DNA of 40,000 bases from Halobellus salinus (GCF_014646875.1 NZ_BMOC01000001.1:309410-349409), one strand, 5' to 3'. Shown: positions 7,888 to 35,400, numbered from the stretch's first letter. Translations and numbers: made by a program. Notes: generated from the letters alone by a model not told the origin.

Positions 7888-7905
7888 TGACTGACCGGAC
7901 AGTCA
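7888..7905. promoter_or_regulatory. Candidate TetR operator palindrome
   Basis: 'tgactgaccggacagtca' is an 18-nt palindrome with one mismatched pair. It ends 17 nt upstream of the TetR GTG start. Confidence 0.4.
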
Positions 7906-7921
7906 GTTTGAGGCACACACT

Positions 7922-18705: not shown

Positions 18706-18858
18706 CGTATCAGAGTGCGGTGCCGAAATATATAGAACGTCCGATGGGCGCCAACAGCGTCGTTCAGACGGGGACAGAGGCGTGCTGCGTGCGCCGGTTG
18801 CGGCGCAAGCCGGAGCGCGAGCCTATGCCCGACGGGAGCGAGAAGCATAGACGCGTTT

Positions 18859-19200
18859 GTGGGCCACGGACTGTTGGTGTTCGCTCTCGCGGTGCTCGCC
18901 GCGGAGCGGCGGGGCTGATCGCGGCGCTGCCCGACGTCGACGTGGCCTACGCCGTGATCGCGGTCGACGGCGGCCGGTTCCTCGGCGGTGGGTCGGTCCG
19001 ACCGGACGTGTTCTGGAACGCCGCAAACGCCGTCCACCGGTCGATGACCCACTCGCTAGCCGTCGCGGCGGTGGCCGGTCCCGCCCTCGGTCTCTGGAGT
19101 AGCCGCAGCGGGCGACGGGTGCGTCGCTACCGGGGTGGCGCTCGAAAAATGTCCAGCGGTCGTCCGGCCGTGCGTTCGTGTACCCCTACCCGAGACGCCC
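18859..19200 (+). pseudogene. Probable frameshifted YdjM-type membrane-bound metal-dependent hydrolase remnant
   Basis: The frame from 18859 reads 'VGHGLLVFALAVLAAERRG*'. A second frame continues 'AAGLIAALPDVDVAYAVIA...VHRSMTHSLAVAAVAGPALGLWS'. The xPDxD and HRxxTHSL motifs are characteristic of YdjM-like hydrolases. No single frame spans both parts. Confidence 0.3.
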
Positions 19201-19269
19201 GTCCGAACGACCGCTCGCAACCGTATGCCGGATTTTCACGAAACCAATAAAAATCTTGTGTATAGTTGC

Positions 19270-19659: not shown

Positions 19660-19669
19660 AAATATATTA
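19660..19669 (+). promoter_or_regulatory. Candidate TATA box for the tubulin-like operon
   Basis: 'aaatatatta' is centred about 37 nt upstream of the ATG at 19702. This fits an archaeal promoter producing a very short leader. Confidence 0.35.
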
Positions 19670-19701: not shown

Positions 19702-20886
19702 ATGCAATATCTCTTTGTGGGGGCCGGCCAGGCAGGGACGCAGATCGTCGACCAGATCTTCGCACACGACAACATCGACCTTCGGGCGGAGGCGCTGGCG
19801 TTCAACTCCACGATCCAGGACCTCGAACGCCTGGACAACATCCCGCAGGACCGGTGGTATGGGGTTTCCGAGAGCGACGGGCTCGTCAGCGGGACCGTCC
19901 GCGGGTTCGAAGAACGGGTCACGGGTGGCTTCGGCCAGACCCCGACGAAAGCCGACCGGGTAATGCGCCGGAACGAGGGAGAAGTCCACCGCGTGCTCGA
20001 TGAGGTGTACGAGGGGTTGGAAGCGGATCCCTCGACGCTGCAATACGCGTTCGTCTTCCTCGGGTTCGGCGGCGGCACGGGATGCGGGATCGCGCCGCAC
20101 CTCGCCCGGGAGATCCGGTCGTACGCCAGTTCGGAGATGGACATCGTCTCAGTTGGCGTGCTCCCCAATACCAAGCTGGTGAACCAAGGCGCCCAGATGG
20201 ACAACGACGAGGACAACCCGGTGGAAAAGCAGATCCAGCAGTGTGAGAACACGGTGTTCGGGCTGGACAACTTGGAACAGGAAGTCGAGAGCATCATGCT
20301 CGTCGACAACCAGCGGCTCGCGTTGGACGTCGCGGAGAGCAACGAGTACAGCGACTACAACCGGTACGTCGCCGACGCGTTCTTGGATATCGTCTTGGGG
20401 GCCGAGCGCGAGCGCACGGACGACGCGCTCGACGTCCAGATGATGGACGTCGACCTCCAAGACCTTATCCGGTACATCGACGGCGACGGGTTCCGCGCGG
20501 GGTACGCTACGCTCGGCCGCGGTGTCCGGCAGACGGAGTCGCTTCTCGGCTACCTCCTCCCCGGACCGTTCGGCCGTCAGCCGATCCAAGAGACCGGGTT
20601 GATCGCCGACTCCATCGACAAGCAGACAATCGACGAGTTCTCCCCGAGCGACGCCACGAGCGCGGTCGCCGTCGCACAGGCACCGGGGTGGTGCTGGGAC
20701 GACAAGGAGGTCTCGGTCGGGTCGGTCGAGAGCGAACTCGGCTACTACTGCAAGAACGTGAACGCCGGGTGGGCCGTCACCAAACGGAACCTCGCGTCGG
20801 TCACGACCGCGTTCGGGTTTGACCGCGAGGACATCGACCGGATCGCCCAGATCGAACGGATCGCCGAGCGGGAGGGGACAGCGTGA
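19702..20886 (+). CDS. Divergent CetZ-like tubulin/FtsZ-superfamily GTPase (paralog 1, 394 aa)
   Basis: G1 box 'LFVGAGQAGTQIVDQIF' (aa 4-20). T3-like 'TGGFGQT'. Tubulin signature 'LGFGGGTGCGIAPHLAREI' (aa 120-138, signature at nt 20062-20088). 'MLVDNQRLALD' resembles tubulin/CetZ 'DNxA'. T7-like 'MMDVDLQDLIRYIDGDGFRAGYATLG'. Confidence 0.85.
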   Translation: MQYLFVGAGQAGTQIVDQIFAHDNIDLRAEALAFNSTIQDLERLDNIPQDRWYGVSESDGLVSGTVRGFEERVTGGFGQTPTKADRVMRRNEGEVHRVLDEVYEGLEADPSTLQYAFVFLGFGGGTGCGIAPHLAREIRSYASSEMDIVSVGVLPNTKLVNQGAQMDNDEDNPVEKQIQQCENTVFGLDNLEQEVESIMLVDNQRLALDVAESNEYSDYNRYVADAFLDIVLGAERERTDDALDVQMMDVDLQDLIRYIDGDGFRAGYATLGRGVRQTESLLGYLLPGPFGRQPIQETGLIADSIDKQTIDEFSPSDATSAVAVAQAPGWCWDDKEVSVGSVESELGYYCKNVNAGWAVTKRNLASVTTAFGFDREDIDRIAQIERIAEREGTA

Positions 20887-21140
20887 GGAAGCCTCTCCTC
20901 GCCGCCATCGCCGTCGGCGCGGCGCTCGCGGCCGTCGGAAGCGTGGGCGCACAGGGTGACGCCGCATCCCTCGCAGCGCTCGTCGACGGGACGCAACGCG
21001 GACTGGGCCGGCTGGCCGCGGTACAGGTCGCCGCCGGGGACTCGAATCTGAACGTCGTCCGGGGCGTGGGCGGCCTCGCCGGGGTCGGACTCGGGATCGC
21101 GGTCGGTTCGGTCGCGACGTACGTCCGGTGGAGGCGGTAG
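20883..21140 (+). CDS. Small bitopic membrane protein (85 aa; signal/anchor plus C-terminal TM)
   Basis: GTGA overlap with the upstream stop. The N-terminal 'MRKPLLAAIAVGAALAAVGSVGAQG' is followed by the C-terminal 'GLAGVGLGIAVGSVATYVRWRR'. Confidence 0.6.
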   Translation: MRKPLLAAIAVGAALAAVGSVGAQGDAASLAALVDGTQRGLGRLAAVQVAAGDSNLNVVRGVGGLAGVGLGIAVGSVATYVRWRR

Positions 21141-21141
21141 A

Positions 21142-22224
21142 ATGCGGGGACCCCACCTCGGCGCCGGGATCGTCGTGGCGTCGGTGCTCCTCGCGGTCGT
21201 TGCAGCGGGACCGGCGGCCGCACAGACGGTCGACCCGGCCGACGAGGCCGAGATCTGTCCCGGAACGTCGGGAGACAGCCTTGTCGTGGTGCTCCCCGGC
21301 GACACCTACGTGCGTCCGGGTGGCGACGCGACGCTGCTGCCCGGGACCGAGGCCGAGATCGCGCTCTGTTCCGATGGCGGGGTGGTCAGCACCACCGCGT
21401 GGCCGGTCGACGGCGGTATCAACGGGGTCACTGTGGGCGAGTCCGAGCGGTTCAGCTACCCCGTCACGGTCGAGGCCGTCGAGGGACCGACCCCTGTCGA
21501 GTTCGCGCCGGCGATCGGCCAGCGGGGCGACGTGGCCACCCCGACTGTGACCGCCGCACCGGGGAACGTGACAACGATCGGCGTCGGCGGTAGCACGTAC
21601 CGTGTCGCCGTCGCAGCCGACAACCGCGACCGACTCCGACGGGCGAACAACTCCTACACCGAGACGCGCAACGGGATGCGCACGGCAGCCGCGGATCTCG
21701 CTGAGAACGCTGGGCGGCTCGACCCCGCCCCCGACATACCGGACGACCGGCGGCTGCCACAGATCAACCGGACACGAGCCGTGACAACCAACTACTCCAC
21801 CATCCAGTCGCGACTGTTCAATGCCGCCGCAAACGGAGACACCGGGGCCGTCGCCGCGCTCGACGCGTACGAACGGCAGCACAACGATGCGCTCGGCGAA
21901 ACTCGCGACAGCCTCGAGACCGCGAACCGGGCGATCGAACGGCAGGCCAGATCCACTGCGCTCGGCGTGCTCGGGGACCTCCTCGGGGTTGCGCTCGCCG
22001 GTGCGGTCGTCGGCGGAATCGGCGGCCGCGTGCTCACGGATCGGATCCTCTCGCAGGTGGAAATCGACCGCCGGCGGAGTTCTGCGGTCGACTTCCGGCC
22101 CAAACACCTCGCGGTCCAACTCGGGGTCGCGGTCGTGTTGGTGGCCGGGGCCGTCGCGCTCGTGGTGACGCAGGGACTGCTCGACCCGCTTGTCGCGGTC
22201 ATCCGGGCGGTGATCGGCGTATGA
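21142..22224 (+). CDS. Secreted/membrane-anchored hypothetical protein (360 aa)
   Basis: Starts 1 nt after the upstream stop. Signal peptide 'GAGIVVASVLLAVVAAGPAAAQ', a beta-rich then helical ectodomain, and two C-terminal TM helices ('ALGVLGDLLGVALAGAVVGGIGG', 'LAVQLGVAVVLVAGAVALVV'). Confidence 0.7.
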   Translation: MRGPHLGAGIVVASVLLAVVAAGPAAAQTVDPADEAEICPGTSGDSLVVVLPGDTYVRPGGDATLLPGTEAEIALCSDGGVVSTTAWPVDGGINGVTVGESERFSYPVTVEAVEGPTPVEFAPAIGQRGDVATPTVTAAPGNVTTIGVGGSTYRVAVAADNRDRLRRANNSYTETRNGMRTAAADLAENAGRLDPAPDIPDDRRLPQINRTRAVTTNYSTIQSRLFNAAANGDTGAVAALDAYERQHNDALGETRDSLETANRAIERQARSTALGVLGDLLGVALAGAVVGGIGGRVLTDRILSQVEIDRRRSSAVDFRPKHLAVQLGVAVVLVAGAVALVVTQGLLDPLVAVIRAVIGV

Positions 22225-24284
22225 ACTCGACACGACGCGATGCCCTCACCGCCGGTGGGGTCGTCACCGCGCTTGCGGCCGCCGGCGTCGCCGTGTTCCT
22301 GTTTTCGGGGTCGAGTGACGCGGTCCTGTTTTTCATCGCCGGGGTGCCGGTGGTGTTGATCCTCGGCGGGGTCGCGTGGCACCGCCGGGAGACGCGTTCG
22401 TCGGGGACCACGTCGCCGCGGATCGAATCGATGACCGACGACCTCGCTGACGACGTCGAGGAACTGTTCGTGACCTACCGGCGGCTTGAGACCGAAACCC
22501 CCTGGGATCCGTCCGCGCACGCGGACTCGGTCCAGGGGATCAAACGGGACCTCGAAAACCGCGGGTTCGAGATCACCACCGGGGGCGACACCGTCGACGT
22601 GACCGTGACCGACTACCCGATGGGGATGGGCGCGCTCTCACAACATCGGACAGCCGTCCGGGACGCGCGCGACGCCCTCGAGTCGGAATACCGGGCGGAC
22701 ATCGACGCCCAGATCGAAGCGATGAGCGATCAGATCGATCGGCTGATCGACGGGAACCTGCTCGATCCGTCGGCCGCCGGTGCGGTCGCGGACGCGCCCG
22801 CTGTTGGGGCCGACCCCGGACGCCTGGCCGGTGTGCTTGGAGACCGCCGGAAGACGTTTCAGGACCTTCTCGACGACGCCGAGAGCAAGGTTCACAGCGT
22901 GACCGGCGAACGGGTCGTCGAGTGGTCGGCGGTCGAAGGGCGGATCGCCGCCGGGCAGTACGAGGCGGCCGCCGAACACGTGTTGGACCCGGACGGTGCG
23001 ACACCCCCAGATCCCGGGCCGAAGAAGGCGGAACTGCTCGAGCTCATCGACACTGTCGAGTCGTCGGTCGCGGCGCAGTACGCCGACCCCGCGCGGTTCG
23101 AGACGCTCGGGGAGGTGCGGGGGGAGATCGAAGCGATCGACTCGGCGTATGAGGTGGACGAACTCGACGAGCGGCTGCGACCGCGTGCGCTCCGGGCGTC
23201 CGCGGAGGTCCTGACCGATATGCGCGAGGAGCTGACCGGGTATATCGAGCAGTTCAGCCGGTCGAACGTCCCGGATGGCTTCTTCGAGCGGCCGGGGGTG
23301 CTCGATCGCTCGCTCGAATCGGAACTCCGCGGCGCGTCAGATCTGGATGCGTTCCGGACGCTGTGGACCGGAATGGCCGACGACCTCGCGGCGGCCCTGG
23401 ACACGGCCGGCGAGCGCGATGGCGCCCTCCGGGCGTACGACGACGTGGTCAACATCGTCGAGCGGGCCCTCGCAACCGATGGGGAGGTGACGGAATCGGA
23501 CGTGCCGTACGATCCCGCAGAGCCGATCATGCGGCTGTACGCCCACCGGAACCCCGAGGTCGGGTTCATGCCGGGGCGTCCCGCCCTCACACAGGACACC
23601 GAGGTGATCGGCCAGCAGTTCGGCCTCGCAGTCGACGTACAGCTCGACCCCCCAGAGACCCGCGACGTCACGGTTGCGGTGACGATCAGAGACGAGACCC
23701 ACCGCCGGACGCGGACGCTCGAAGGGTCGGGCCGAATCGGGTTCGACGGCATCCTGGGCGGTCAGGCGACGGTGGCCGCCAGCGCCGACGACGACCGGTT
23801 CGGAAGCCGTGAGACCGAACTGACGCTCGACCGCGACCGAACGGTCAACCTCCAACTGTCGGAGGAGACCGCGATCGAACGGCTGTGTGCAGGCGTCGAG
23901 ACCAACGCCGAACTCCTCCTCACGGAGGTCGAAGACGACATAACCGCACGCTACGAGTCCGAACAGTATCTCACCGACGGCATGGACCTCGGTGTCCAAG
24001 ACGAGTACACACAGTGCGTGCTCGCGCTGTGGGCCGACAACGCCGGGCTGTCCGTTCAGGTGGAAACCGATTCAGTACTAGTGTACGACAGACAGCGCAT
24101 GCAGAACCAGTTGGTAGATCTGACAGAACAGCGCGTGGGCGACGCCGGCGAGCTCGCCTACGAGACGATGCGCGAGCGGTTCCTGAAACCGCCGGCGAGC
24201 GACGCACTGATACGCGACATCCTCGCGCAGGCGGAGTTGAGTATCGACGTGGAACTCACTGACGACAAGGTGGTGAGTGCGTGA
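22221..24284 (+). CDS. Membrane-anchored hypothetical protein with large acidic soluble domain (687 aa)
   Basis: ATGA overlap with the upstream gene. The N-terminal 'STRRDALTAGGVVTALAAAGVAVFLF' is Tat-like or TM1. It is followed by 'AVLFFIAGVPVVLILGGVAW' (TM2) and then about 620 aa of acidic, partly helical sequence. No family motif recognised. Confidence 0.75.
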   Translation: MNSTRRDALTAGGVVTALAAAGVAVFLFSGSSDAVLFFIAGVPVVLILGGVAWHRRETRSSGTTSPRIESMTDDLADDVEELFVTYRRLETETPWDPSAHADSVQGIKRDLENRGFEITTGGDTVDVTVTDYPMGMGALSQHRTAVRDARDALESEYRADIDAQIEAMSDQIDRLIDGNLLDPSAAGAVADAPAVGADPGRLAGVLGDRRKTFQDLLDDAESKVHSVTGERVVEWSAVEGRIAAGQYEAAAEHVLDPDGATPPDPGPKKAELLELIDTVESSVAAQYADPARFETLGEVRGEIEAIDSAYEVDELDERLRPRALRASAEVLTDMREELTGYIEQFSRSNVPDGFFERPGVLDRSLESELRGASDLDAFRTLWTGMADDLAAALDTAGERDGALRAYDDVVNIVERALATDGEVTESDVPYDPAEPIMRLYAHRNPEVGFMPGRPALTQDTEVIGQQFGLAVDVQLDPPETRDVTVAVTIRDETHRRTRTLEGSGRIGFDGILGGQATVAASADDDRFGSRETELTLDRDRTVNLQLSEETAIERLCAGVETNAELLLTEVEDDITARYESEQYLTDGMDLGVQDEYTQCVLALWADNAGLSVQVETDSVLVYDRQRMQNQLVDLTEQRVGDAGELAYETMRERFLKPPASDALIRDILAQAELSIDVELTDDKVVSA

Positions 24285-25552
24285 TGGCGGCCGGACCGGG
24301 GGCGGACCGCGACGCCACACGGTGGGGTATCATCGCGTCTGGCCAGGGCGGCTGCCGGATCGCGTCGCAGCTTTTCACCCGGACGGACAATCCCGGGGTC
24401 GACGACCGGATCGTCCTCATCAACACCAACGACACGGACATCAAAGAGAGCCTTGATCGGGTGGACGCGCAGTTGACGATGGATCGGGAGATGATCTCCC
24501 GGGAGCACGTCGCGCTCTTCGGGCCTGCCGACGGCACCGGAAACGACTTCTTCGATGGGGAGCGGTTCGCGGAGGAGGGGTTCGACGAGATCTACCAGCC
24601 GATCAACAACACCGCCCGGTCCGACGCCCTCATGTACACGGTTGCGCTCGGTGGGGGGACCGGAAACGGGTCGACACCCTACATCATCGACCAGTTCAGA
24701 CAGGCGCCGGAGGGGGGCGCGGTTGCGGGGTCAAGCAGCGAAGCGACGTGGCTCAACGACATCCCGCAGTTCGTGCTCGCGGCGTGGCCGTTCAGGGGCG
24801 AACTGGACCAGCGGTATTTCAACGCCGTGTGTGGCCTCTCGCGGCTTCTGATGCGGGAGGAAGGGTCTCCCAACGCCGACATAACGCTCCTCGCGTCGAA
24901 CGCGCGGCTGAAGCAACTCCCGGAGGAAAACAACGACACCGAGGCGGTGGCCGGCGCGGAAGCCGTCAGGGAGGAAGACCTCGTGAACCGGCGGATCATC
25001 TCCGCGCTCGATCTGTTCATCAGCGCCGGGCGAACCGCCAGCGATACGATCGACGTGAGAGACTACGCCCGCCAGCCGCAGAGCCGCGGGGCGTACCACG
25101 GCACGTTCGGCACCGCGCTCGAGAAGCCGCTCGGGTTGGGGCTGGAGGTGGCGATCGAAAAGGCCGTCGGGAACACGTTCGTTCCCTTGGACCCGTCGAC
25201 CGCGGAGGCGGCGTACGTGGTCGTGCGCGCGCCACAGCGGAAGGTCAACGCCGGAAAGATCACCGGAGGGGATGTCCGGGGCGCCTTCGCCGACTGGCGG
25301 GAGAAACAGGACCTCAGTGGCGTGGTGGGAATGCATACGCTCTCGAAACAGCCCGGCGGCGGCAACACGTTCGACGTGCTCGTGTTCCTCGCCGGGTTCG
25401 ACCTCACGCCGCTTTTGGAGGAGTCGCGCTCGTGGGAGCGCTACGAGAGCGAGCGGGATCGCCGCGAACAGAACAGTACCGGCGATCGGGGGAAGCGAAT
25501 CCGTCAGTTGGAAGAGAACCTACGGCAGTACCGGAATAACCTGGAGGGGTGA
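24284..25552 (+). CDS. Highly divergent tubulin/CetZ-like GTPase (paralog 2, about 422 aa) with charged helical C-terminal tail
   Basis: The ATG overlaps the upstream stop (TGATG), and an in-frame GTG lies at 24281. G1 box 'WGIIASGQGGCRIASQLF'. T3-like 'PADGTGNDF'. Signature 'VALGGGTGNGSTPYIIDQF' (from nt 24647). T7-like 'TIDVRDYARQ'. Tail 'ERYESERDRREQNSTGDRGKRIRQLEENLRQYRNNLEG'. Confidence 0.8.
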   Translation: MAAGPGADRDATRWGIIASGQGGCRIASQLFTRTDNPGVDDRIVLINTNDTDIKESLDRVDAQLTMDREMISREHVALFGPADGTGNDFFDGERFAEEGFDEIYQPINNTARSDALMYTVALGGGTGNGSTPYIIDQFRQAPEGGAVAGSSSEATWLNDIPQFVLAAWPFRGELDQRYFNAVCGLSRLLMREEGSPNADITLLASNARLKQLPEENNDTEAVAGAEAVREEDLVNRRIISALDLFISAGRTASDTIDVRDYARQPQSRGAYHGTFGTALEKPLGLGLEVAIEKAVGNTFVPLDPSTAEAAYVVVRAPQRKVNAGKITGGDVRGAFADWREKQDLSGVVGMHTLSKQPGGGNTFDVLVFLAGFDLTPLLEESRSWERYESERDRREQNSTGDRGKRIRQLEENLRQYRNNLEG

Positions 25553-28500
25553 CTGTGGGACAGGATACCCCCGGACGCGGCACCGCGACGATTGCCGTTC
25601 TGGCGTGTCTAGTCGTTGTTGTTTCGGGGCTCGCGGTCGCGCCGGGAGCGGTCGGCGCGCAGCAACAGCAACCCGACGGCGACGTCGCGTTCGACGGGGA
25701 CAACGGCGAACTGACAGTCGCAGTGGACCGACGGAACGCGGCCAACGGGAGCTTCACCGGCAGCCCGGAGGACGTGACGATCGATATCGGGGGTGCGACG
25801 GTGCAGAAGCGCACCGATCCCGGGAACGCCTCGACGTACAACTACATGGTCGGGCCGGACGAGTTGGCCGGTCTCGACAGCCTCGACGGGCAGGACGGCG
25901 CGGGAACGACCGTCACAGTCACCCACAGCGAGGCGGGGAGCTTCAACGAGACCGTCGACATCCAGCACGTCGTGCTCGGCGGCGACGGGACGTTCACCGG
26001 CGACGGGGCGTTTCGGTTTGGCATCGTACAGAGCTTCGGCATCGCGACCGACGGATCGGTGGCAGTTCGGGTCGAGGTCGGAAGCGAGGAGCAGGACGTC
26101 TCTGCCGCGTATCGACAGGACGGAGCGACCAACGAGTCGTATCTGGTGGTGGATCGTGCCACCCTGAGTGACCTCGGGGTGCTCGAACGGCCGCAGGAGG
26201 TCACGATCTTCGGACAGGAACAGTTCGTCGGTGGGTCCGTATCGGTCGATGTCGCCAGCAAGGGCGCGGCACTGACGACCGGCGAGCGCCTGTCCGACGA
26301 CACCGTCCGGTTCGAGAGCCCGCTGTTCGAGGCCGGCGGGACGTACGAGATCGACGTCGCCACGGGTGGAGCCCAGTACCTGCAGACGATCGAGGCCGGC
26401 GACCGCGCGGTCGAAGTCGACAGTGCGGCGGTGGCCGCGGAGTCGAGCGTGAGCCTCACCGTCGAGCGGAACGAGAACACGATTCTCAACGGACAGACGG
26501 TCGAATTCGAGACCCGGACGGTGAACGGGACCGTCGACGGCGCGACGATCACGTTCGACAGCCTGCCCGGAGGAATCAGCGGAGCCGACGGGAGCGGGGC
26601 CAACGTGAGCGCGGTGTGGGTCGAAACCCAAGGCGGCGTTGAGCGGTACGAGGCCGGGCTGAACGCCACCACGGGGACGCTGACACTGTCGAACGCGGAA
26701 TCGCTGCCGCGGGCGGACACGAACGAGGCCGACATCCTCGTGCAGTTCGAGGGCGCGACGCCGCTGCACGCCACCGTGTCGCTGCAGTCCGACAGCGATG
26801 GAGCGGCCGCCGAACAGCCCAGCAACGGGGACGAAACCGGGCTCGCGATCGACTTCACGACGATCCTGTTCGCCGTGGCTGTGGTGCTGCTGTTCGTTGT
26901 CGGTGTTGTCGTGGTCTTCTTACTCCTCGATCGGTTCGGGTCCGGCACCACGAACCTCAGCATCCCGTTCGGTTCCTCGAAGTCGACACCGGTCGGGGAG
27001 TCACCCGGGAGCGAGACCGCCGAGGTGTCCGTGGAGGTGGTCGACGAGACCATCGGCACGACCTACCCCCACGCGAACGAGGTGGTCGTGCGCCCGGAGA
27101 ACCGCAGCGGCTCGGCGCAAGCGGCCGGAGCGGTGGGCAGTAGCGGACGCTCCGGGCCGACTGGACACCCCGGATCTGCCGGCCGGACTGCAGCCGCCGG
27201 GCTCGACGGGGTCAACACCACCCGGGCCGACTCAATCGATCTGACGGCCGGCGAGGGCGAGATCGAACTCGAGTACGGGACCTGGATTTTCGAGATCAAA
27301 CGGCGGGGAGAGACCATCGGACAACGGAAACACGAAGTCGGGTACGGCTTCGAGAGCGATCACATCGGACTCTCAGTCGACCCACACGCCGTGGAAGCGG
27401 TGGTGACCGGCGGCCCCGACCGGGAGCCGTTGTCGGGGACGGTCGTTGAGGCGACAGCGGACGCCGGGAGGTGGACGCAACAGAAGCCCACCGATCCGGA
27501 GGGCAGAGTCCGGTTCGAGGTGCCGCGGTCGGCGTCGACCGTCTCGTTCACCGCCACACACGAACCCCTCCCGCCGGCGGAGTCGGAACGCCGGGTCGAG
27601 AAGGCGGCCGAGCAGGGCGTGAGCCTGCGGATCGCCGACGGGAGCGGGTCGATGCGGGTTGAGACGACGGTCGGCGACCGGGCGTGGCCCAACGTCGAAG
27701 TCGGGATCACGCCGATCAGCGCGGACGCCAAGGCGTACACCGAGGAGGGGACGGTCACAACGACGTCGAACGGGCACCAGACGATCGAGGGACTCCCAAC
27801 CGGGGAGTACGAAGTGACCGCCCACCCGCAGGTCGAGTCGGTCGAGACCACCGCAGCGGTCGAGCGCGTCACAGTCGAGGACGGCGGGACCGTCGGCGTA
27901 GAGCTTCCGGTTGGCATCTCGTATACGATGTCGACCGCACAGCGCGACAGGGTCGGAGAGCTGGAAGACCGGATCGAGGGGTTGGCGGCGGCGTCGAACC
28001 GCGACGTGGCGATCCCGCGGTACTACGGGACAGTGCTCACCTCGGTGCTCGAACTCGCAGCGGGCGTGGAGTCGGCACCGGAACGCGCCGTCGAGACGGG
28101 GATCTCTCCCGATGCGACGGTGGATGCGCTGCTCGATGCGACCGAAGCCGGAATCAGAGCGGTCGACGGGGCGATGTCGGAACGCCGGAACGTGAAGCTG
28201 TTCGACGCGTGTGAGGCGCTGCCCGCCGCGACGGTCGAGTGGACCGGGACAGCGACCTTGGAGGAGTTCCTCGGCGGGGTGGCCGACGGCGGAGATCACG
28301 AGCGGCGCGCGCTCCGCGACCGGCTCAGGGCGGTCGACGAGACCCTGGACGGGAAATGGGGCGAGGTCAACGAGATCGCTCCGGCCCGAAAACTCCACGA
28401 CCGGGTGGGAGACCTGGCGCGGGAGACCCGCGATATCGACGACGAACTCACACTTGTCGCACGGACGTACGTCGGAGTCTGTCTGTTGGACGCGGTCGAG

Positions 28501-28554
28501 GGGGTCTTCGACCACGACAGTCTGGTGGATCGGCTCAACAGCGGGAGCTACTGA
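25549..28554 (+). CDS. Large bitopic membrane protein (1001 aa): signal peptide, about 400-aa ectodomain, central TM, about 530-aa second domain
   Basis: GTGA overlap with paralog 2. Signal 'IAVLACLVVVVSGLAVAPGAVGAQ'. The ectodomain carries many N-x-S/T sequons. The TM is 'ILFAVAVVLLFVVGVVVVFLLL' (about aa 437-460). Downstream are three beta-sandwich-like units resembling carboxypeptidase-regulatory-like domains ('TDPEGRVRFEVP', 'GLPTGEYEVTAHP'), then a helical region. Confidence 0.8.
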   Translation: MTVGQDTPGRGTATIAVLACLVVVVSGLAVAPGAVGAQQQQPDGDVAFDGDNGELTVAVDRRNAANGSFTGSPEDVTIDIGGATVQKRTDPGNASTYNYMVGPDELAGLDSLDGQDGAGTTVTVTHSEAGSFNETVDIQHVVLGGDGTFTGDGAFRFGIVQSFGIATDGSVAVRVEVGSEEQDVSAAYRQDGATNESYLVVDRATLSDLGVLERPQEVTIFGQEQFVGGSVSVDVASKGAALTTGERLSDDTVRFESPLFEAGGTYEIDVATGGAQYLQTIEAGDRAVEVDSAAVAAESSVSLTVERNENTILNGQTVEFETRTVNGTVDGATITFDSLPGGISGADGSGANVSAVWVETQGGVERYEAGLNATTGTLTLSNAESLPRADTNEADILVQFEGATPLHATVSLQSDSDGAAAEQPSNGDETGLAIDFTTILFAVAVVLLFVVGVVVVFLLLDRFGSGTTNLSIPFGSSKSTPVGESPGSETAEVSVEVVDETIGTTYPHANEVVVRPENRSGSAQAAGAVGSSGRSGPTGHPGSAGRTAAAGLDGVNTTRADSIDLTAGEGEIELEYGTWIFEIKRRGETIGQRKHEVGYGFESDHIGLSVDPHAVEAVVTGGPDREPLSGTVVEATADAGRWTQQKPTDPEGRVRFEVPRSASTVSFTATHEPLPPAESERRVEKAAEQGVSLRIADGSGSMRVETTVGDRAWPNVEVGITPISADAKAYTEEGTVTTTSNGHQTIEGLPTGEYEVTAHPQVESVETTAAVERVTVEDGGTVGVELPVGISYTMSTAQRDRVGELEDRIEGLAAASNRDVAIPRYYGTVLTSVLELAAGVESAPERAVETGISPDATVDALLDATEAGIRAVDGAMSERRNVKLFDACEALPAATVEWTGTATLEEFLGGVADGGDHERRALRDRLRAVDETLDGKWGEVNEIAPARKLHDRVGDLARETRDIDDELTLVARTYVGVCLLDAVEGVFDHDSLVDRLNSGSY

Positions 28555-28560
28555 CAGAAC

Positions 28561-29655
28561 ATGAAGGGGACACTACTCAGGATGGTCGTCGTCGTCTGCG
28601 TGGTGACGTCCACCGCGGGCGTCGCGGCGGCGACGAGCGGGGCACAGGGGAGCACAGCGGACGCGCCCGACGGGACGCCACCGGCGGACCTCGATGCGGC
28701 GTCGGCGCACGCAGACGTCGATATCGACGTCGAGGAGCCACAGACCGGCGACGATTTCCTCGCGGCGTTCCGGCGGCTATCGGGACAGGAGTCGCTGTCG
28801 GCGTACAGCGAGTTGGAGGTGATCCGGACCCAGGCGGTCGTCGCGGTCCAGTCGGGGTCGTTCGATGACGCCGACCGCGAGCGGATGCGCGGAGTGTTGC
28901 GCACGCTGGTTCGGTTCGACGCGGCGTACGCCGCCGCACAGAACGACAGCCTGACGACGAGTTTCGAGTCGGCGACAGCGACCCGAGAAGCGGTCTCGGG
29001 GCTCGATTCGTCCGGGAGCACCGTCTACAGTTCGCTCGCGAGCGTCGCCTTGGATCGGTTCTTCCGGTCGCTGGGCGAGCGCTTCGAGCAGCGCTCCCGG
29101 GCGGACGGAATCAGCACGCCCGAGCAGATCGACGCGCTCCAGCGGGCCGGGGAGGCGTACCGCCTCGGCGGGTCCAGCGAGCGGTTCGCTGAAGTGTCGG
29201 TCGAGGCCGAACAGCTCGAGAGCGCGTGGGCGCGCGACAGCCAGGAGATCAACGAGTCGATGGCGGCCACACAGTCGTTCCTCGACCGGTGTGGGGCCAC
29301 CTGCGGGAGCCCGGTGAACGCGGTGTCGACCCACACGCTCGGCGTGTTCGGGCTGTACACCGACGCCCGGGCGGCGAGTTCAGCGAGCAGCGACGCGGTC
29401 CGGATCGCAGAGGCGAACAACCTGGGCGACCGCACCACGGAGCTGCAAACAGTCGCCAGCGACGCCTCCGACACGCTGCTGTCGCTGGCGATCGGGTCGG
29501 CGCTGCTTCTGTTCGCGTACGCGTTCGTGCTCGCGATCCCGACGATGATCGTCGCCAGCCGGATGTCGGCGTGGGCGCGCGACAGGCGGGCCGCGTCGGT
29601 GGGGTCAGTCCTCTCGGCGATGCCACGGGAGGTGTACACCGATGGCGGCGAGTGA
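28561..29655 (+). CDS. Secreted helical protein with C-terminal TM anchor (364 aa)
   Basis: Starts 6 nt after the upstream stop. Signal 'MVVVVCVVTSTAGVAAATSGAQG'. The body is helical and acidic. The C-terminal TM is 'LLSLAIGSALLLFAYAFVLAIPTMIVA'. Confidence 0.75.
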   Translation: MKGTLLRMVVVVCVVTSTAGVAAATSGAQGSTADAPDGTPPADLDAASAHADVDIDVEEPQTGDDFLAAFRRLSGQESLSAYSELEVIRTQAVVAVQSGSFDDADRERMRGVLRTLVRFDAAYAAAQNDSLTTSFESATATREAVSGLDSSGSTVYSSLASVALDRFFRSLGERFEQRSRADGISTPEQIDALQRAGEAYRLGGSSERFAEVSVEAEQLESAWARDSQEINESMAATQSFLDRCGATCGSPVNAVSTHTLGVFGLYTDARAASSASSDAVRIAEANNLGDRTTELQTVASDASDTLLSLAIGSALLLFAYAFVLAIPTMIVASRMSAWARDRRAASVGSVLSAMPREVYTDGGE

Positions 29656-32341
29656 GCGTACTGTGAGCCGTGTCGGGGTGGTCATCGTGGCCGCGGTGGT
29701 GGCGCTTTCGGCGTTTGCGGGGCCGGCAGCAGCGGCGACACAGACCGTCGAGCTCGACGAGGCGCTCAACGACCAGCAGCGCGCCACGGAGTTCACGTTC
29801 ACCTTCACCGCGAGCGGCAACGACACCGTGACCGCCGACAGCGGACCGAGCTTCCAGGGCGGCAACGTGAACTTCGAGTTCGAGGGGTGGGACGACCTCG
29901 ACAGCGGCGCGTCGGGGTCGTCACCCAGTTGGGACGTACAGAACGGAAACGAGTACGAAGTCACGTATCAGGCGCAGGTGTCGTCGGGTGCCAACGACGA
30001 GAGCTGGACCGCAACGGTCAGCGGCGGTTCCACAAGCGCCTCGGAGACGCTCAACCTCAACGTTGACTACCTCCAACCCCGGTTCGGCGCCACCGACAGC
30101 CCAACCGAGACGCTGATCTTCACCGATACCAACGACGCGTCTACGGAACTCGACATCGGGTTCGACAACGACGGGCCGGGCGTGATGGTGCTCGATTCGG
30201 TCAACCTCGATAGCACGCCCAGTGGGATCGACGTCTCGGTCGCCTCGCTGTCGAACCAGGTCGACGGCGGGGGGTCGGGGACGGCCGTGCTCGATGTCTC
30301 CGTGGACCCGTCGGTCAGCGCGGGTGACTACACCATCTCGGGGACCATCACCGACAGCCTCGGGAACACCGAGTCGTTCAACGCGGAGATAGAGGTCCGA
30401 AAACCACCCGTCATCTCCGCCGACGACGTCGACGTCGGCGGCGTCCTCATCGGCGAGTCCAACACCGTCGATGTCACGATCGAGGAGGTCGCCGGGTTCT
30501 CCGGCGTCGATGGCGTGAAGGTGAACGTCATCGGGACCAGCGACGATGGCGCCGTCACCGTCGAGGGCGCCGGGTTCGCGAGTACCGGTCCCGGGGGGAG
30601 CGACACGATCGAGGTCCAGGTCTCAGCGGACTCCGACGGGGTGCAGAACGCCGACCTCGACTGGCAGGTCGAGTTGACGCCGCAGGACCAGTACAGCCCG
30701 ACCGAGTCGATCGACGTCACCGGCGAGGTGTTCTACCCGCCGAACCTCGAGTCGCTGTCGGGTGAGGGCGCCGAGAACGTCTTCGACACGCCGCGGTCGC
30801 AGGCCGACACCCAGACCACCGAGACGCGGGTGACCTTCGAGAACACCGGCGACCTCGACATGGACGTAACAGGTGTGTCGGCGAGCGTCGACGACCCCGA
30901 CGTGTCCGCGTCGATCGCGAACGCCGACGCAGCCGTCGGCGGGCAGTCCACCGGAGAGGCGACGGTCGTGCTCGAAGCCGACCCCGAGGCCGCGGAAGGG
31001 AGCTACCCCTTCACCGTCACGGTCGACACCGCGACGGCGGGCACCCAGTCGGTCACGCGCGACCTCACAATCGAGCACATCCCTGAACTCGCCGTGGAGC
31101 GCTCGGAGTTGCCGCTGGGTGACATCACGGTCACCAACCAGCGGACGACGAGCATCGACGTCTCGGAGGTCCTGGAGTACGAGTCGGTCTCCGGTGTCGA
31201 GGTCGTTCGGGTCTCGGGTCCAGACCAGTACCTCGAGGTCGCCGAACGCCCCACCGAGCTCCGGGCTGGCGGGTCCGCGCCGCTGGTGTTCGCAGTCGCG
31301 TTCGACACCTCCGCGGAACTCTACCAGCAGTACCGCTGGGAGTTCGAGGTCCGCGGGGAGGGCGTCGAGACCCAGACCGTGACCGTGACCGCGCAGCCGA
31401 CCCCCTACTCGTTCGATTCGATCTCGAACAACCTCTCGTCGTACGCCGGTGGGTCGGGAGCGCGCGCGGCGACCGCAGCGGGAATGGCGGAGTCGCTTTC
31501 GGCGCTGGAAACCCGGTTGCGGGACGGCGAGGAGGTCCCGGAGGGCGACCTCACCGAGACGATCGCGGCGGGCGAAACCGCGATTCTGCTGCTCGACTCG
31601 CTCGAGGCGGCGGACGAGGCGCGGGGATCCGACGGGCCGGCCGCCGCACAACCGGATGTGCTTCGGGCGCAGGCAACGCTCAACGCGATGTCGGAGTACG
31701 TCACGCGGATCGACGCCTCGCAGGTCGACGCCTCCGCCACGGGGTCGCTCGAGTCCGCCCGAGCCGCGACCGACGAACAGGCCGACGCCCAAGTGGAGTA
31801 TTACGAGTCCCAACTCAACGGCGACATCACCACGTTGCAGCGCGCCAGCGCGAACCGCCAACTCGCGCGGTTGGCCGAGAGCCGCGGCAACGCCGAACGA
31901 GCCAGCCGGCTGAACGAGGAGGCGTCGGGCGCGTTCGACACCTACCTCCAGCAGGTGCAGAACGCCTCCGAGAGCGCGGAGAACGCGCGGGCGACGCGGG
32001 AATCGATCCGTGAAGACGCCACGCTTGTCCTGCTGAACCAGCCGCTGGTGTTGAACCCGGCGCGACTCGACGGTATCTCGGCGGAGATCAGCGCAATCGA
32101 CGCGGCGTACGCCACCGCCGAGGAGACGTACGCCGAGGCGGGCGCGACGGGGCAGGCCGACGCGATCGGCGGGGAACGCGCCACGGTGCAACAGCGCCTC
32201 CAGTTGACACGGTACGGGCTGTGGGGCGCAACCGCGCTGTACGGGCTCGTGGTCCTCGTCGCGCTGCTCAGGACGGGACGGAACCTGTACGCGTACCTCC
32301 AGGACAGACGCACCGTCGAAATGGGTGCGGTCCTGCAGTAG
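29642..32341 (+). CDS. Large surface protein (899 aa): signal peptide, repeated Ig-like beta-sandwich units, helical stalk, C-terminal TM
   Basis: 14-nt overlap with the upstream gene. Signal 'VGVVIVAAVVALSAFAGPAAAA'. It has repeated 'x-V-x-[FV]-x-N-x-G...' strands ('ETRVTFENTGDLDMDVTGV', 'LDIGFDNDGPGVMVLDSV') of the CARDB/Ig-like type. The region from about aa 600-860 is helical. The C-terminal TM is 'LWGATALYGLVVLVALL'. There is no PGF-CTERM motif. Confidence 0.8.
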   Translation: MAASERTVSRVGVVIVAAVVALSAFAGPAAAATQTVELDEALNDQQRATEFTFTFTASGNDTVTADSGPSFQGGNVNFEFEGWDDLDSGASGSSPSWDVQNGNEYEVTYQAQVSSGANDESWTATVSGGSTSASETLNLNVDYLQPRFGATDSPTETLIFTDTNDASTELDIGFDNDGPGVMVLDSVNLDSTPSGIDVSVASLSNQVDGGGSGTAVLDVSVDPSVSAGDYTISGTITDSLGNTESFNAEIEVRKPPVISADDVDVGGVLIGESNTVDVTIEEVAGFSGVDGVKVNVIGTSDDGAVTVEGAGFASTGPGGSDTIEVQVSADSDGVQNADLDWQVELTPQDQYSPTESIDVTGEVFYPPNLESLSGEGAENVFDTPRSQADTQTTETRVTFENTGDLDMDVTGVSASVDDPDVSASIANADAAVGGQSTGEATVVLEADPEAAEGSYPFTVTVDTATAGTQSVTRDLTIEHIPELAVERSELPLGDITVTNQRTTSIDVSEVLEYESVSGVEVVRVSGPDQYLEVAERPTELRAGGSAPLVFAVAFDTSAELYQQYRWEFEVRGEGVETQTVTVTAQPTPYSFDSISNNLSSYAGGSGARAATAAGMAESLSALETRLRDGEEVPEGDLTETIAAGETAILLLDSLEAADEARGSDGPAAAQPDVLRAQATLNAMSEYVTRIDASQVDASATGSLESARAATDEQADAQVEYYESQLNGDITTLQRASANRQLARLAESRGNAERASRLNEEASGAFDTYLQQVQNASESAENARATRESIREDATLVLLNQPLVLNPARLDGISAEISAIDAAYATAEETYAEAGATGQADAIGGERATVQQRLQLTRYGLWGATALYGLVVLVALLRTGRNLYAYLQDRRTVEMGAVLQ

Positions 32342-32370
32342 CAGCGCAGGGTGTGACGGAGCGTTTGATC

Positions 32371-32444
32371 GCGTCGGACACCTACTCGCTCGAACGCACG
32401 TCCAGCCGCGTCGGACACCTACTCGCTCGAACGCACGTCCAGCC
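32371..32444. repeat. Perfect 37-bp tandem duplication at the convergent gene junction
   Basis: 'gcgtcggacacctactcgctcgaacgcacgtccagcc' occurs twice back to back (32371-32407 and 32408-32444). The first 6 nt of a third unit follow. The second copy contains the stop and last 8 codons of the minus-strand 1108-aa gene. Confidence 0.9.
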
Positions 32445-35400
32445 GCGTCGAGAGCGTGTCCGGGAGCGTCGGCGTGTCGGCCTCGTCTTCGGCGTCGACC
32501 CGCCAGCGTTCGGCGTTGTCGGTCCGGTCCCCTGAGACGGTCACCGCCGTCGAGTGAGGGCCGTCGGCGCCGTTGAACGGGGTGACTTCAAGTTCGATCG
32601 GGAGTTCGACGCGGTCGTCGTTGACGGTGCACTCGACCCGGTGGGTCGCGGTCGATCCGGGGTCGAGCGCGTCGATCTCGCCGGGTGCGTAGAGGTACTC
32701 GTCGGGCGCCGTGCCGGTGGCCTCAACGCGGACCGCAACCGGCGCGCCACCCTCGTTTTCCAGCCGAAGCACGACGTTGGTGTCGCGGTCGCCGAGGATG
32801 TCCACCGAGTCGACGGCGACGGAGACGGGCGGGGCGTGTGAGTCGTGGACCGCCGCGAGGGTTTGCAGCGGCCGCTGCCTGTGGTCGATCCGGACGAGCG
32901 TCAGCGCCGGGCGTTCGGTTGGCGCGCCCTGGTAGGTGATCTCCCGGGTTACGTCACCGCCGGGAGCGACGTCGAACCCGTCGAAGCCGACACCTGTGGA
33001 GAACCCCTTCGAGCCGATTTCGAGCACGGAACACGACGTCTCAAGGTTGTTATGAACGTCAAGCCGGACGTCGGTCGTGGTCGACCCCGCCGAGAGCGCG
33101 GGACGAACGACGACCGGTGCGGGTTCGACCGGAACCGACACCCCCGGCACGGTCACCTCGGCGTCGTCCGCGCTGGCGGTGACCGGCGGGACCTCGATCG
33201 AGGAGGTGTCCCACGCGGCGTGATACCGAGTGGCAGTCGCCGTTGTCTCCGGGCTGAGTTCGACCGTGGCTGCGTCACCGTCGGACCGGAGGGTGATCGA
33301 CTTCGGCTCCGGCGAGCGGTTCTCGACCGTGAGCGTCTCTTCGAGGGCGTGACCCTCGTGAGCGGTGTCCGAGTCCAGGCTGCGGTCAAGGCCGAGCGGG
33401 TCGCGGGGTGCCGGGGAGGCGGACTCCTCGGATGCGGCGGAGTCGTCAGGGGCGGCGGGCGAAACGGGCGAGTCGACCGACTCCGGTGACGGTCCGCGCT
33501 CGGGGCCGGGGGTCGCGTCCGGCTGGCCGGCCGACCCGGGGGCCGCCGGTGCGGACGCGTCGCCCGCCTCCGCGGAATCCGGCGGCGTTGTGTCCCGGTC
33601 CGGAGGGGCCGCCGGTGCGGACGCGTCGCCCGGCTCCGCGGAGTCCGGCGGCGTTGTGTCCCGGTCCGGAGGGGTCGCCGGTGCGGATGCGTCGCCCGCC
33701 TCCGCGGAATCCGGCGGCGTTGTGTCCCGGTCCGGAGGGGTCGCCGGTGCGGATGCATCGCCCGCCTCCGCGGAATCCGGCGGCGTTGTGTCCCGGTCCG
33801 GATGGGGGGTCGAGGGCGTGTCGCGGCCGCCGCGTGTCGGCGTGTCCGCGCCCGGGACCCGGTCCTTGCCGTCGTGTGCGTGGTCGTTGCGGCCGTCCTG
33901 TGGGGCGTCCGTCCCGCCGGCCGACGGGAGCGTCGCGCGGTCAAGCGAAACAGCGGCGGTGGCGTCGACCGCCGCGGCGTCGATCCTGACCTCGCCGACA
34001 CCGGCGCGGGCAGACGGAAGCGCAAGTGTGAGTCGACCCCCGGCCGGGAGAGACACCGACCGCTCTACCGGGGTGACCAGCGGGTCGCCGGTCACCCGCA
34101 CGTCGTCGTGGACCGTTATGTCGGTGTCGTTCCGGAGCGTCACGTCGACGAACCCGTCGTCGCGTGCGCTGACGGACGCCGAAAGCGGGGTTGTCGGGGG
34201 TGACACCGCGGCGTCGACCGACTCCCCGTCTCCGGTTGTGGCGGTCACTCGCTCCGTCGTGAGGGGGAGCGAGAGCGTCCGTGACACCGAGGACCGCCCC
34301 GGTTCGGGATCGATGTCGACGCCGCCCGGGGAGAGCGACACCGCCGGGAGATCCGACCCGTCCGGCGTCCGAACGCTCACCTCAACGGTCGCAGTCCCGT
34401 CGTCGACACCGGTGACATCAGCACCGACGACCGGGGTTGGGGTTGCCGGCGGGACCGAAATCGTCGCCCCGACCTCGGTCGGTTCCGAGCCATCGGTGCC
34501 GCCGGGGGTGAACGTCGCACGGGCTGCAAGCCGAGACCCCGCCGCCTCCGCGAGCGTGAACCGCAGTTCGGTGCGTTCGCCGGCGTCAAGCGAGACCCGC
34601 CGGGATTCGGGACGGAACGATCCGTCGTCGGCGGACGCCCGAACCGTCCCGGTGGTCGGCTCACCGATGGTTTCGGCCGTGACAACGAGTTCCGAGCCGA
34701 CCCGGAGCGACGTCGGCGAGAGGTCCAAGTCGACGCCGGAAAGCGACGCCGCAGGCCGAAGCACCCCGGCGGTCCGACCGTCGATCCGGCAGGCCACCTC
34801 CCCGTCGGTTGTGACCGCGACCTGCGTTGCGTCTGGTGTGTCGATCCCGACGTCGGTCACCGCGCCGTCGGCGGAGATCCGGACTACGCCGTGATCGGCG
34901 GCGGCGTAGAGCCCCCCGTCACCCCGCGGTGCGAGCCACTCGACGTCGAGGTGCAGTTCCCACCGGATCGCCCCGTCGTCCGCGTCGACGCCGACGACCC
35001 GATCACCGTGGAGCGACACCACCGCCACGTCTTCGAGCAGTCCGACGCCCGTGATGGTGCCGTCGAGCATCGCCTCTCCCGTCCGATCGCCGTCGGGGCC
35101 GAACCCGGTGAGGTACCACGACTCGCCCGCGAGGAACTCCTCGCCCCGGCCGGCGAGCAGGACGGTCTCGGACACGTCGGCGTGGGTCCGGTCGATCCGT
35201 CCGCGTTCGGTCCCGTCAGCGTCGTCGAGTAGCACGAACTCTCCGGTGTCGGTGGCGGCGACCACCCGCGATTGGTCGGGCACCCAACACAGCGCCGTGG
35301 CGCCGTCAATGGGCGCCTCCCACCGTCGTGCGCCGTCGAACCCGTACCCGAACACGTGGTCGTCGACCGCGACGTACACCAGCGGCCCGACCGCAAGCCC

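Follow-up and report, generated by a model that had tools for sequence, protein, structure and literature searches.

A conserved gene cluster of Halobellus salinus pairs two CetZ-like GTPases with membrane proteins predicted to have domains on both sides of the membrane

We analysed a 40,000-nt stretch of the Halobellus salinus genome (NZ_BMOC01000001.1:309410-349409, hereafter the window; coordinates are positions in it, on the + strand unless stated), in which eight consecutive open reading frames (ORFs), here numbered genes 1 to 8, encode two tubulin-fold GTPases and six proteins with predicted signal peptides or transmembrane (TM) segments (Table 1). As judged from sequence comparison, these genes constitute a co-inherited and tightly packed set, whose membrane proteins are predicted to expose domains on both sides of the membrane. 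We estimate a probability of roughly one half that the locus specifies one co-expressed, envelope-spanning multi-protein machine, in which membrane-tethered CetZ-like filaments are coupled to an extracellular scaffold. An earlier interpretation of the same DNA, made without database searches (the sequence-only reading), had described genes 1 to 8 as a single operon of two CetZ/tubulin-like GTPases and six envelope-spanning partners.

Table 1. Coordinates of the cluster genes and of the region upstream of gene 1 in the window
Feature	Position	Strand	Description
176-aa ORF	18720-19250	+	Truncated multi-TM homolog; matches only residues 14-132 of a 335-365-aa protein
TATA-like promoter box AAATATATTA	19660-19669	+	33-42 nt upstream of the gene-1 ATG, by sequence reading
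Gene 1 (T1)	19702-20886	+	394 aa; cytoplasmic CetZ-like GTPase of the tubulin/FtsZ superfamily; Pfam PF00091 and CetZ profile matches
Gene 2	20883-21140	+	85-aa small membrane protein; N-terminal hydrophobic segment and a weaker C-terminal one
Gene 3	21142-22224	+	360 aa; predicted signal/anchor, ~245-aa extracellular domain, two C-terminal TM segments (hydropathy)
Gene 4	22221-24284	+	687 aa; predicted N-terminal TM hairpin, ~630-aa cytoplasmic part (hydropathy, positive-inside flanks)
Gene 5 (T5)	24284-25552	+	422/423 aa; cytoplasmic CetZ-like GTPase of the tubulin/FtsZ superfamily; PF00091, AlphaFold2/Foldseek
Gene 6	25549-28554	+	1001-aa bitopic protein; predicted signal/anchor, ~410 aa outside, TM 442-460, ~540 aa inside
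Gene 7	28561-29655	+	364 aa; predicted signal peptide, ~290-aa extracellular helical domain, TM 314-332, conserved 32-aa cytoplasmic tail
Gene 8	29642-32341	+	899 aa; predicted signal peptide, ~830 aa outside, TM 858-876, conserved 23-aa cytoplasmic tail
Gene 9	32419-~35583	-	~1050-aa beta-propeller (PQQ-like) and Ig/CARDB-like protein; conserved downstream of gene 8

Results and discussion

Two tubulin-fold GTPases related to CetZ

The assignment of genes 1 and 5 to the tubulin/FtsZ superfamily was borne out by their scores against PF00091 (49.9 and 34.7 bits, respectively, with a gathering cutoff of 33), and the two proteins share only 23% identity with each other. When the profiles of both families were compared with the Protein Data Bank (PDB), the three solved CetZ structures ranked best (E 1e-11 to 4e-14), followed by FtsZ (E ~1e-7) and then by TubZ/RepX and tubulins; the best matches of the gene-1 family were CetZ 3zid and 4b46 (E ~1e-11), the latter being aligned over residues 1-271. 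The AlphaFold2 model of gene 5 (predicted local distance difference test score, pLDDT, of 82; predicted template-modelling score, pTM, of 0.87) folds as a member of the tubulin superfamily in Foldseek searches, with CetZ2 (4b45; E 1.4e-18, template-modelling score 0.82) and CetZ1 (4b46) first, over 371-397 alignment columns and with target-normalised scores of 0.80-0.82, and with BtubA, tubulin and FtsZ next. The same model displays the predicted two-domain architecture of the superfamily, namely a nucleotide-binding domain, helix H7 and a C-terminal activation domain. Genes 1 and 5 encode full tubulin-fold proteins, the nearest solved relatives of which are CetZ.

The sequence-only reading had ascribed to both proteins the G1 box GxGQxG and the T4 signature GGGTGxG. 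The T4 signature is present in both (GGGTGCG in gene 1 and GGGTGNG in gene 5), whereas the G1 box holds for gene 1 (GAGQAG) and has no exact match in gene 5 (ASGQGG). Among 46 homologs of gene 1, GxGQxG is conserved in 93-97%, GGGTGxG in 97-100% at its fixed positions, the T6 DN in 100% and the T7 DxxD in 97%; among 69 homologs of gene 5, GGGTGNG is conserved in 97-100% and both aspartates of the T7 IDxxDY in 97%, and the T6 asparagine is invariant in an alignment of 17 sequences. Both homolog sets take in distant archaea. Acidic residues of the T7 loop trigger GTP hydrolysis in the neighbouring subunit of the polymer, and this loop carries D251 and D254 in gene 1 and D258 and D261 in gene 5; the corresponding catalytic residue of CetZ1 we take to be a glutamate (E218), whereas genes 1 and 5 have aspartate. 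By their motifs, the two proteins retain all that is needed for GTP binding and are predicted to be catalytically competent.

The name CetZ is appropriate in so far as CetZ proteins are the closest among solved structures, but it does not extend to strict membership of that family for gene 1, and probably not for gene 5. With CetZ1 and CetZ2 of Haloferax volcanii (4b46 and 4b45), genes 1 and 5 share the two-domain fold, the GGGTGxG signature, an acidic T7 loop and a host within the Halobacteria; in contrast, they are only ~18-28% identical to these proteins (27-28% to one canonical CetZ from the published data, with 72 bits for gene 1 and 67 bits for gene 5, the latter at 28% identity), and the gene-1 family does not fall inside the canonical CetZ node in the published tree (Fig. 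6 of PMC9871819), in which it can be placed via the Altiarchaeota 'CetZ-like' protein ODS39765, a member of the gene-1 family that scores 327 bits to gene 1. Neither protein is FtsZ, given that both are far below the cutoff of the FtsZ equivalog TIGR00065 (31.3 bits for gene 1 and 15.1 for gene 5, against 295.2), and in UniProt the gene-5 homolog of Halobacterium is entered as 'FtsZ family protein, noncanonical'. On these comparisons, 'CetZ-like, non-canonical' is the accurate label for both. The genomic context differs as well: canonical cetZ1 and cetZ2 have as neighbours genes for cofactor or nucleotide biosynthesis, a sugar epimerase or the pilB2/C2 regulon (PMC9856176), none of which is found in the cluster, where the neighbours are dedicated membrane genes.

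Two Hydrothermarchaeota proteins of the published tree, GBE54332 and GBE54334, were considered as orthologs of genes 1 and 5 and set aside, since they reach only ~57 bits in BLAST, which marks them as a separate CetZ-like pair. Gene-5-like tubulins were also seen outside any cluster, as a second copy among transporter genes in Halobellus ordinarius (locus L025) and H. marinus (L033), and as a copy divergent from the adjoining cdhC (acetyl-CoA synthase beta subunit) in anaerobic methanotrophic (ANME-2) archaea (L039-L060). The latter gene had been a candidate cluster partner (c6) and was rejected once it was identified as CdhC; the ANME-2 proteins, solitary beside cdhC, lie outside such a system.

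Gene organisation and promoter region

All eight ORFs are intact, lie on the + strand between 19702 and 32341 and have a GC content at third codon positions of 0.84-0.89, as expected for real genes in a genome of 68% GC. Their junctions, when re-read, agreed with the sequence-only reading in every case: GTGA (20883-20886), a stop ending at 21140 with an ATG at 21142, ATGA (22221-22224), TGATG (24282-24286), GTGA (25549-25552), a 6-nt gap (28554/28561) and a 14-nt overlap (29642-29655). GGAGG- or GGTGA-like Shine-Dalgarno motifs occur before each of genes 2-8, and no such motif was seen in the sequence before the start of gene 1. For gene 5 there is an in-frame alternative GTG at 24281; however, the ATG at 24284 is most likely the start, because the same start is found in a 92%-identical homolog (P0121). 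Across about 33 loci of Halobacteria the median junction gaps are 1, 5, 2 and -8 nt, and these conserved tight junctions, together with the Shine-Dalgarno-like motifs, support the proposal that the genes would be transcribed and translated as one unit.

The candidate TATA box, previously placed about 37 nt upstream of gene 1, is kept as GTCGTCAA(A/G)TATA(A/T)TAG in four related species (loci L003-L006) while the flanking intergenic DNA diverges, and its distance from the ATG suggests that the 5' leader of gene 1 is very short or absent. In contrast, the long non-coding region said to lie upstream proved to be of ~450 nt instead of ~1 kb, since part of it is occupied by the 176-aa ORF. In Halobellus marinus, H. 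ordinarius and strain Atlit-31R, a full-length multi-TM protein of 335-365 aa is encoded between an aminotransferase gene and gene 1, and the ORF of the window is apparently a truncated remnant of this gene, which accounts for part of the presumed non-coding region.

Conservation and distribution of the cluster

With each species represented by a single genome, the scan yielded 80 loci. The same order and the same gene sizes were found in about 35 loci of Halobacteria belonging to three orders, and a core of the cluster was found in other archaeal phyla, so that the gene order is indeed conserved beyond this genome. A tubulin, gene 4, a second tubulin, gene 7, gene 8 and a beta-propeller protein make up this core, which is also found in Methanoperedens and Hydrothermarchaeota. 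Genes 8, 7, 1, 4, 5 and 6 are present in Methanoperedens, together with a convergent beta-propeller/CARDB gene. In Hydrothermarchaeota-type metagenome-assembled genomes genes 1 and 5 are accompanied by a short form of gene 4, divergent genes 7 and 8 (the neighbour c13 being the gene-7 ortholog, with an hhalign probability of 98.8%) and an adjoining beta-propeller gene, whereas Micrarchaeota retain just genes 4 and 5, with gene 1 nearby. The gene-1/gene-5 tubulins are always encoded with gene 4, which lies directly upstream of gene 5 in every lineage and between both tubulin genes except in Micrarchaeota, and the beta-propeller partner is constant outside Micrarchaeota. Orthology of the Hydrothermarchaeota beta-propeller protein (c16) to that of the window was not established (hhalign, 23%), both having PQQ-like propellers. 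In Methanoperedens (locus L038, 9068-9925) an RRXRR-family gene (PF14239, 135 bits) was observed between genes 4 and 5, inside the operon, which suggests a mobile insertion.

These data bear on the simplest alternative, that unrelated genes are tightly packed in a gene-dense genome and form no functional unit. In haloarchaeal genomes a stop codon commonly overlaps the start codon that follows it, and there is little sequence conservation in genes 2 and 3, both of which would fit chance packing. However, order, sizes and junctions are the same in about 35 genomes, although the proteins share just 25-45% identity, and the core is kept in other phyla with a different gene orientation, while the genes that flank the cluster are not conserved between genera. 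Chance packing is therefore hardly credible.

One gene of the flank deserves mention: rod-determining factor A (RdfA; PF21811, 238.8 bits), a haloarchaeal cell-shape factor of 206 aa, is encoded at 12687-13307 (+), 6.4 kb upstream of the tubulin operon, from which it is separated by ABC-transporter, ferredoxin and aminotransferase genes. In other genera this flank does not accompany the cluster, so that RdfA is probably near the operon only by coincidence.

The cluster is located on megaplasmids in Halobacterium salinarum, Natrinema and Halobaculum, and in the chromosome in many other species. On plasmid pHS2 of Halobacterium salinarum R1 it corresponds to OE_RS12060-12025, annotated merely as 'FtsZ' or 'hypothetical'. 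We know of no such cluster in Haloferax volcanii. That the cluster is distributed patchily, and in some species resides on plasmids, points to an accessory, dispensable system. Plasmid location could also indicate that the GTPases serve plasmid or mobile-element maintenance in the manner of TubZ, with the membrane proteins as unrelated cargo or surface-exclusion factors; in keeping with this, insertion sequences flank the cluster on pHS2 and TubZ/RepX are among the weaker PDB matches. Nevertheless, CetZ and not TubZ are the nearest relatives, no TubR-like or other DNA-binding domain was detected in the eight proteins with Pfam and NCBIfam, the membrane genes accompany the tubulins in different phyla, and the cluster is chromosomal in many species. 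In the window, too, its context is chromosome-like, the rest consisting of ordinary chromosomal genes with no mobile-element genes seen among them. Searches for a defence or phage origin gave no PADLOC or PHROGs matches and no relatives in IMG/VR viral contigs. A role of the TubZ type is, in our opinion, very improbable.

Six membrane proteins with predicted domains on both sides of the membrane

Topology of genes 2-4 and 6-8 was assigned from hydropathy and inspection of the flanking charges. As had been proposed, hydrophobic segments compatible with signal peptides or TM anchors were predicted in every one of the six proteins, and the resulting topology fits large domains on both membrane sides. 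The sequence-only reading had recognised no family motif in any of them, which agrees with the Pfam, NCBIfam and PDB profile searches except for immunoglobulin (Ig)-, CnaB- and prealbumin-like beta-sandwiches; in the comparison of the profiles of genes 4, 6 and 8 with PDB sequences, beta-sandwich domains alone were matched.

Gene 4, which is identical (100%) to the hypothetical protein GCM10008995_03380, belongs to a very small family, for which 1.84 billion proteins yielded no more than 60 representative clusters. Its AlphaFold2 model (pLDDT 79.8) shows two TM helices, a helical region (66-445) and the strands of a beta-sandwich (466-548) of CnaB/prealbumin-like type, followed by a small alpha/beta domain at the C-terminus; in Foldseek searches with this model only the beta-sandwich was matched and the helical parts had no match. 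Short forms of gene 4 (470-480 aa) retain residues 14-456, that is, the TM and helical part. We regard gene 4 as a candidate membrane tether for the tubulin-like filaments.

Gene 6, present in 35 loci, Methanoperedens among them, has prealbumin-like beta-sandwiches and a conserved helical C-terminal domain in its predicted cytoplasmic part, with weak Pfam matches to CarboxypepD_reg, SdrD_B and SpaA and a profile match to collagen-adhesin B-repeats in the PDB (E 6e-6). By profile comparison, genes 4 and 6 have a beta-sandwich in common.

An hhalign comparison of gene 7 with the last 280 aa of gene 8 gave a probability of 90.8% (E 1.2e-6) over 257 columns, TM segment and tail among them; gene 7 is accordingly a paralog of that part of gene 8 which is predicted to form the stalk next to the membrane, the TM segment and the cytoplasmic tail. 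As far as could be found in the literature searched, neither this paralogy nor the sandwich shared by genes 4 and 6 has been reported before. The outer part of gene 8 consists of Ig-like domains and a long helical stalk, with weak matches to Big_13 and choice-of-anchor D.

This architecture would also suit an apparatus for surface adhesion or motility, in which the gene-8 protein and those associated with it would be moved along the cell surface, or clustered there, by treadmilling cytoplasmic filaments, by analogy with FtsZ treadmilling, which guides cell-wall synthases, and with MreB-linked gliding complexes. The long stalk of gene 8 bears several Ig-like domains, the conserved cytoplasmic tails of genes 7 and 8 are suited to coupling, and gene 6 joins both membrane sides. 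On the other hand, Pfam and NCBIfam detected no adhesin-type repeats, sugar-binding domains or motor proteins, and the comparison is pure analogy, no archaeal precedent having been found in the literature searched; we consider such an apparatus rather improbable.

The smallest partners are less uniform. A small ORF with 1-3 TM segments occupies the gene-2 position in most Halobacteria loci (OE_RS12055 in Halobacterium salinarum). The positional equivalents of gene 3 in other Halobacteria have 333-373 aa and 3-5 TM segments, and the family alignment reveals two invariant cysteines, C39 and C76, in the extracellular domain of gene 3. This protein has no family match in Pfam or NCBIfam, and homology to genes 7 and 8, which was also considered, did not emerge on comparison.

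Gene 9 and additional members of the full cluster

The eight-gene extent given by the sequence-only reading has to be enlarged, since the unit includes a conserved convergent ninth gene and, in most Halobacteria, extra upstream genes. Gene 9 lies directly downstream of gene 8, convergent with it, in 27-30 loci. Its ORF is open to 35745, and a start near 35571-35583 was inferred from orthologs, of which that of Halobacterium matches PQQ_2 (45.8 bits) and CARDB. The N-termini of these proteins have no hydrophobic segment and no signal peptide, and gene 9 is presumably cytoplasmic. In the gap between genes 8 and 9 we noted a perfect tandem repeat (32370-32450; 37 nt x 2.2 copies, 100% match) that takes in the last codons and the stop of gene 9, and which looks like a recent duplication of the 3' end of this gene.

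In most Halobacteria three extra genes on the same strand precede gene 1, encoding a multi-TM protein, a third tubulin-like protein and another protein with no assigned family. The third tubulin (c9; Pfam Tubulin/FtsZ, 51.6 bits), encoded three genes upstream of gene 1, corresponds by sequence to the published 'Halo.Tub' (Santana-Molina et al. 2023, PMC9871819), given that the Halo.Tub queries from Haloquadratum and Halopenitus match it with 50-98% identity and the divergent query from Halogranum with 31-40%. In Halo.Tub (~540 aa; locus L081 on pHS2, 7071-8693, with equivalents in 22 loci) the T4 signature is degenerate (SVTKGTGCG, not GGGTGxG) and the G1 box (GvGGAGN) is FtsZ-like; the protein also has a conserved Cys/His motif in its N-terminal part and a C-terminal domain of 230 aa that is unique to it. 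The other two upstream proteins (c8 and c10) were tried as relatives of genes 4, 6, 7 and 8, and merely weak similarity in helical regions was obtained.

In many Halobacteria an AAA+ ATPase gene (PF00004, 106 bits, with a weak CDC48_2 N-domain match) precedes the beta-propeller gene and is translationally coupled to it; it was located on pHS2 (L082, 13360-14856) and in at least 13 other loci, and on pHS2 three further genes with no assigned family lie upstream of it. None of these four additions, namely the third tubulin, the two other upstream genes and the AAA+ ATPase, is present in the window, in which no c9 homolog was found beyond weak cross-matches to genes 1 and 5. What the window contains is thus a reduced '8+1' variant, which its closest relatives (L003-L006) have as well.

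The ATPase raises the possibility of a membrane-remodelling machine for a discrete event, such as constriction or scission, a cell-cell bridge or fusion, or the budding of vesicles or nanotubes, in which tubulin polymers would give force and the AAA+ protein would recycle them. A classic AAA ATPase in operon with the beta-propeller gene of full clusters is what such a machine might be expected to have, the T7 aspartates would imply dynamic, hydrolysing polymers, and the system is accessory, patchy, partly plasmid-borne and of an architecture that spans the envelope. Against it, Pfam and NCBIfam revealed no ESCRT/Snf7, SepF, fusexin or dynamin-like partners in the cluster, and the window variant has no AAA ATPase, so that this protein is not essential to the core. 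The sequences do not discriminate between remodelling of this kind and envelope organising, nor between the latter and surface adhesion or motility; we regard a discrete-event machine as unlikely, while taking it seriously.

Beyond gene 9 and on the same strand, the window encodes a 696-aa protein with ~6 TM segments (37043-39133, -) and a protein of at least 283 aa (39149-40000, -). Neither has a Pfam match, one weak relative was found in the loci compared, and a link with the cluster is unsupported.

Proposed model

The envelope-spanning machine proposed above could work as follows. The two GTPases would polymerise along the inner membrane face, either jointly or in parallel. Since their C-terminal helices are charged and not amphipathic, membrane attachment is probably indirect, with the cytoplasmic domains of genes 4 and 6 and the tails of genes 7 and 8 as docking sites. 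Through gene 6, which is predicted to cross the membrane, and through the gene-7 and gene-8 tails, filament assembly or treadmilling could be passed to the outside, where genes 8, 7, 3 and 2 and the outer domain of gene 6 would build an extracellular scaffold, positioned or assembled according to the filaments. The beta-propeller protein would be accessory, and likewise the AAA+ ATPase and the third tubulin where they are present. A coupling of this kind fits the predicted topology, and the machine would most likely organise or remodel a patch of the envelope locally, or position a surface structure, in an accessory and not an essential role.

Several observations weigh against this model. Genes 2 and 3 are conserved mainly by position, and the sequence of gene 2 is poorly conserved. 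The topology of the partners is a prediction from hydropathy. Counts of N-glycosylation sequons speak in both directions, with an excess in the outer domain of gene 6 and a deficit in gene 8, and prealbumin/CnaB-like sandwiches, which are typically extracellular, are located here in those parts of genes 4 and 6 that are predicted to be cytoplasmic. Moreover, the dispensability of the system leaves room for a role other than envelope shaping.

Comparison with known systems

Of the published tubulin families, the Halo.Tub and CetZ-like groups are the most directly related, since Halo.Tub belongs to the same gene cluster and the Altiarchaeota CetZ-like group is the gene-1 family, although Halo.Tub itself is missing from the window. 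The paper defining them (PMC9871819) is a phylogenetic survey, in which the membrane partner set, its topology, the beta-propeller and AAA partners and the core outside Halobacteria are not described.

The FtsZ divisome (FtsA, ZipA, FtsQLB and FtsN in bacteria; SepF and CdpA in archaea) may be taken as an analogous arrangement, with a GTPase polymer on the inner face, membrane tethers and extracellular partners, and bacterial divisome genes are likewise clustered (dcw). The present cluster differs in that it has no SepF, FtsA or cell-wall genes, in that its partners have no detectable homology to divisome proteins, and in being accessory and patchy.

BtubA/BtubB with BtubC, and AtubA/B of Asgard archaea, also comprise two diverged tubulin-superfamily paralogs in one operon, an arrangement that in our cluster suggests a hetero-polymer, and BtubA and tubulins are strong structural matches. 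Unlike these pairs, genes 1 and 5 share only 23% identity and have gene 4 between them, joined in Halobacteria by genes 2 and 3; unlike BtubA/B, both have an acidic T7 loop, and their partners are membrane proteins and not a kinesin-light-chain-like BtubC.

The FtsZl1 system (PMC2875224) resembles the cluster in having a divergent tubulin-superfamily GTPase, a conserved multi-gene neighbourhood and a predicted function in membrane remodelling. FtsZl1 is a protein of ~1000 aa with a coiled coil, an alpha-helical C-domain and no recognisable T6-H7, and its partners are vWA, distinct GTPase and OmpA-family proteins (PMC2875224). Identity of genes 1 and 5 with FtsZl1 or FtsZl2 was rejected, because size, domains and partners differ: genes 1 and 5 have 394 and 423 aa and a complete tubulin fold, and no vWA or OmpA matches were obtained.

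The novelty claimed by the sequence-only reading is accordingly reduced to the partners. The tubulins are already included in phylogenetic surveys, one of which lists them as 'non-canonical TSF (tubulin-superfamily) proteins' (PMC9856176), and 'cetZ5' of Halobacterium NRC-1 (VNG6260G), which is reported to be growth-phase regulated (PMC7439475), is a probable cluster member. In the literature searched, we found no account of the envelope-spanning partners as a set or of their topology and paralogies, nor of the beta-propeller and AAA proteins or of the non-halobacterial core.

Conclusions

How CetZ-type homologs reach the membrane and the S-layer to alter cell shape or surface machinery is an open question, and the locus described here is a candidate answer, in that tubulin-like GTPases are genetically locked to a fixed set of membrane-crossing proteins with predicted domains on both sides. 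The presence of the cluster on pHS2 of the genetically tractable Halobacterium salinarum makes the question directly testable.

That several distantly related archaeal lineages have the core suggests that the module is old, and the cluster adds a new branch to the evolution of tubulin-based machines. More tentatively, it may represent an ancient and hitherto unrecognised archaeal cytoskeletal machine, in which two or three CetZ-like tubulins would form a dynamic heteropolymer linked by TM adaptors (genes 4 and 6 and the gene-7/8 tails) to an outer scaffold of stalks and Ig-like domains, with an 'elongasome-like' or surface-organising function. If so, it would be the first archaeal tubulin-family system with its own envelope-spanning partner set.

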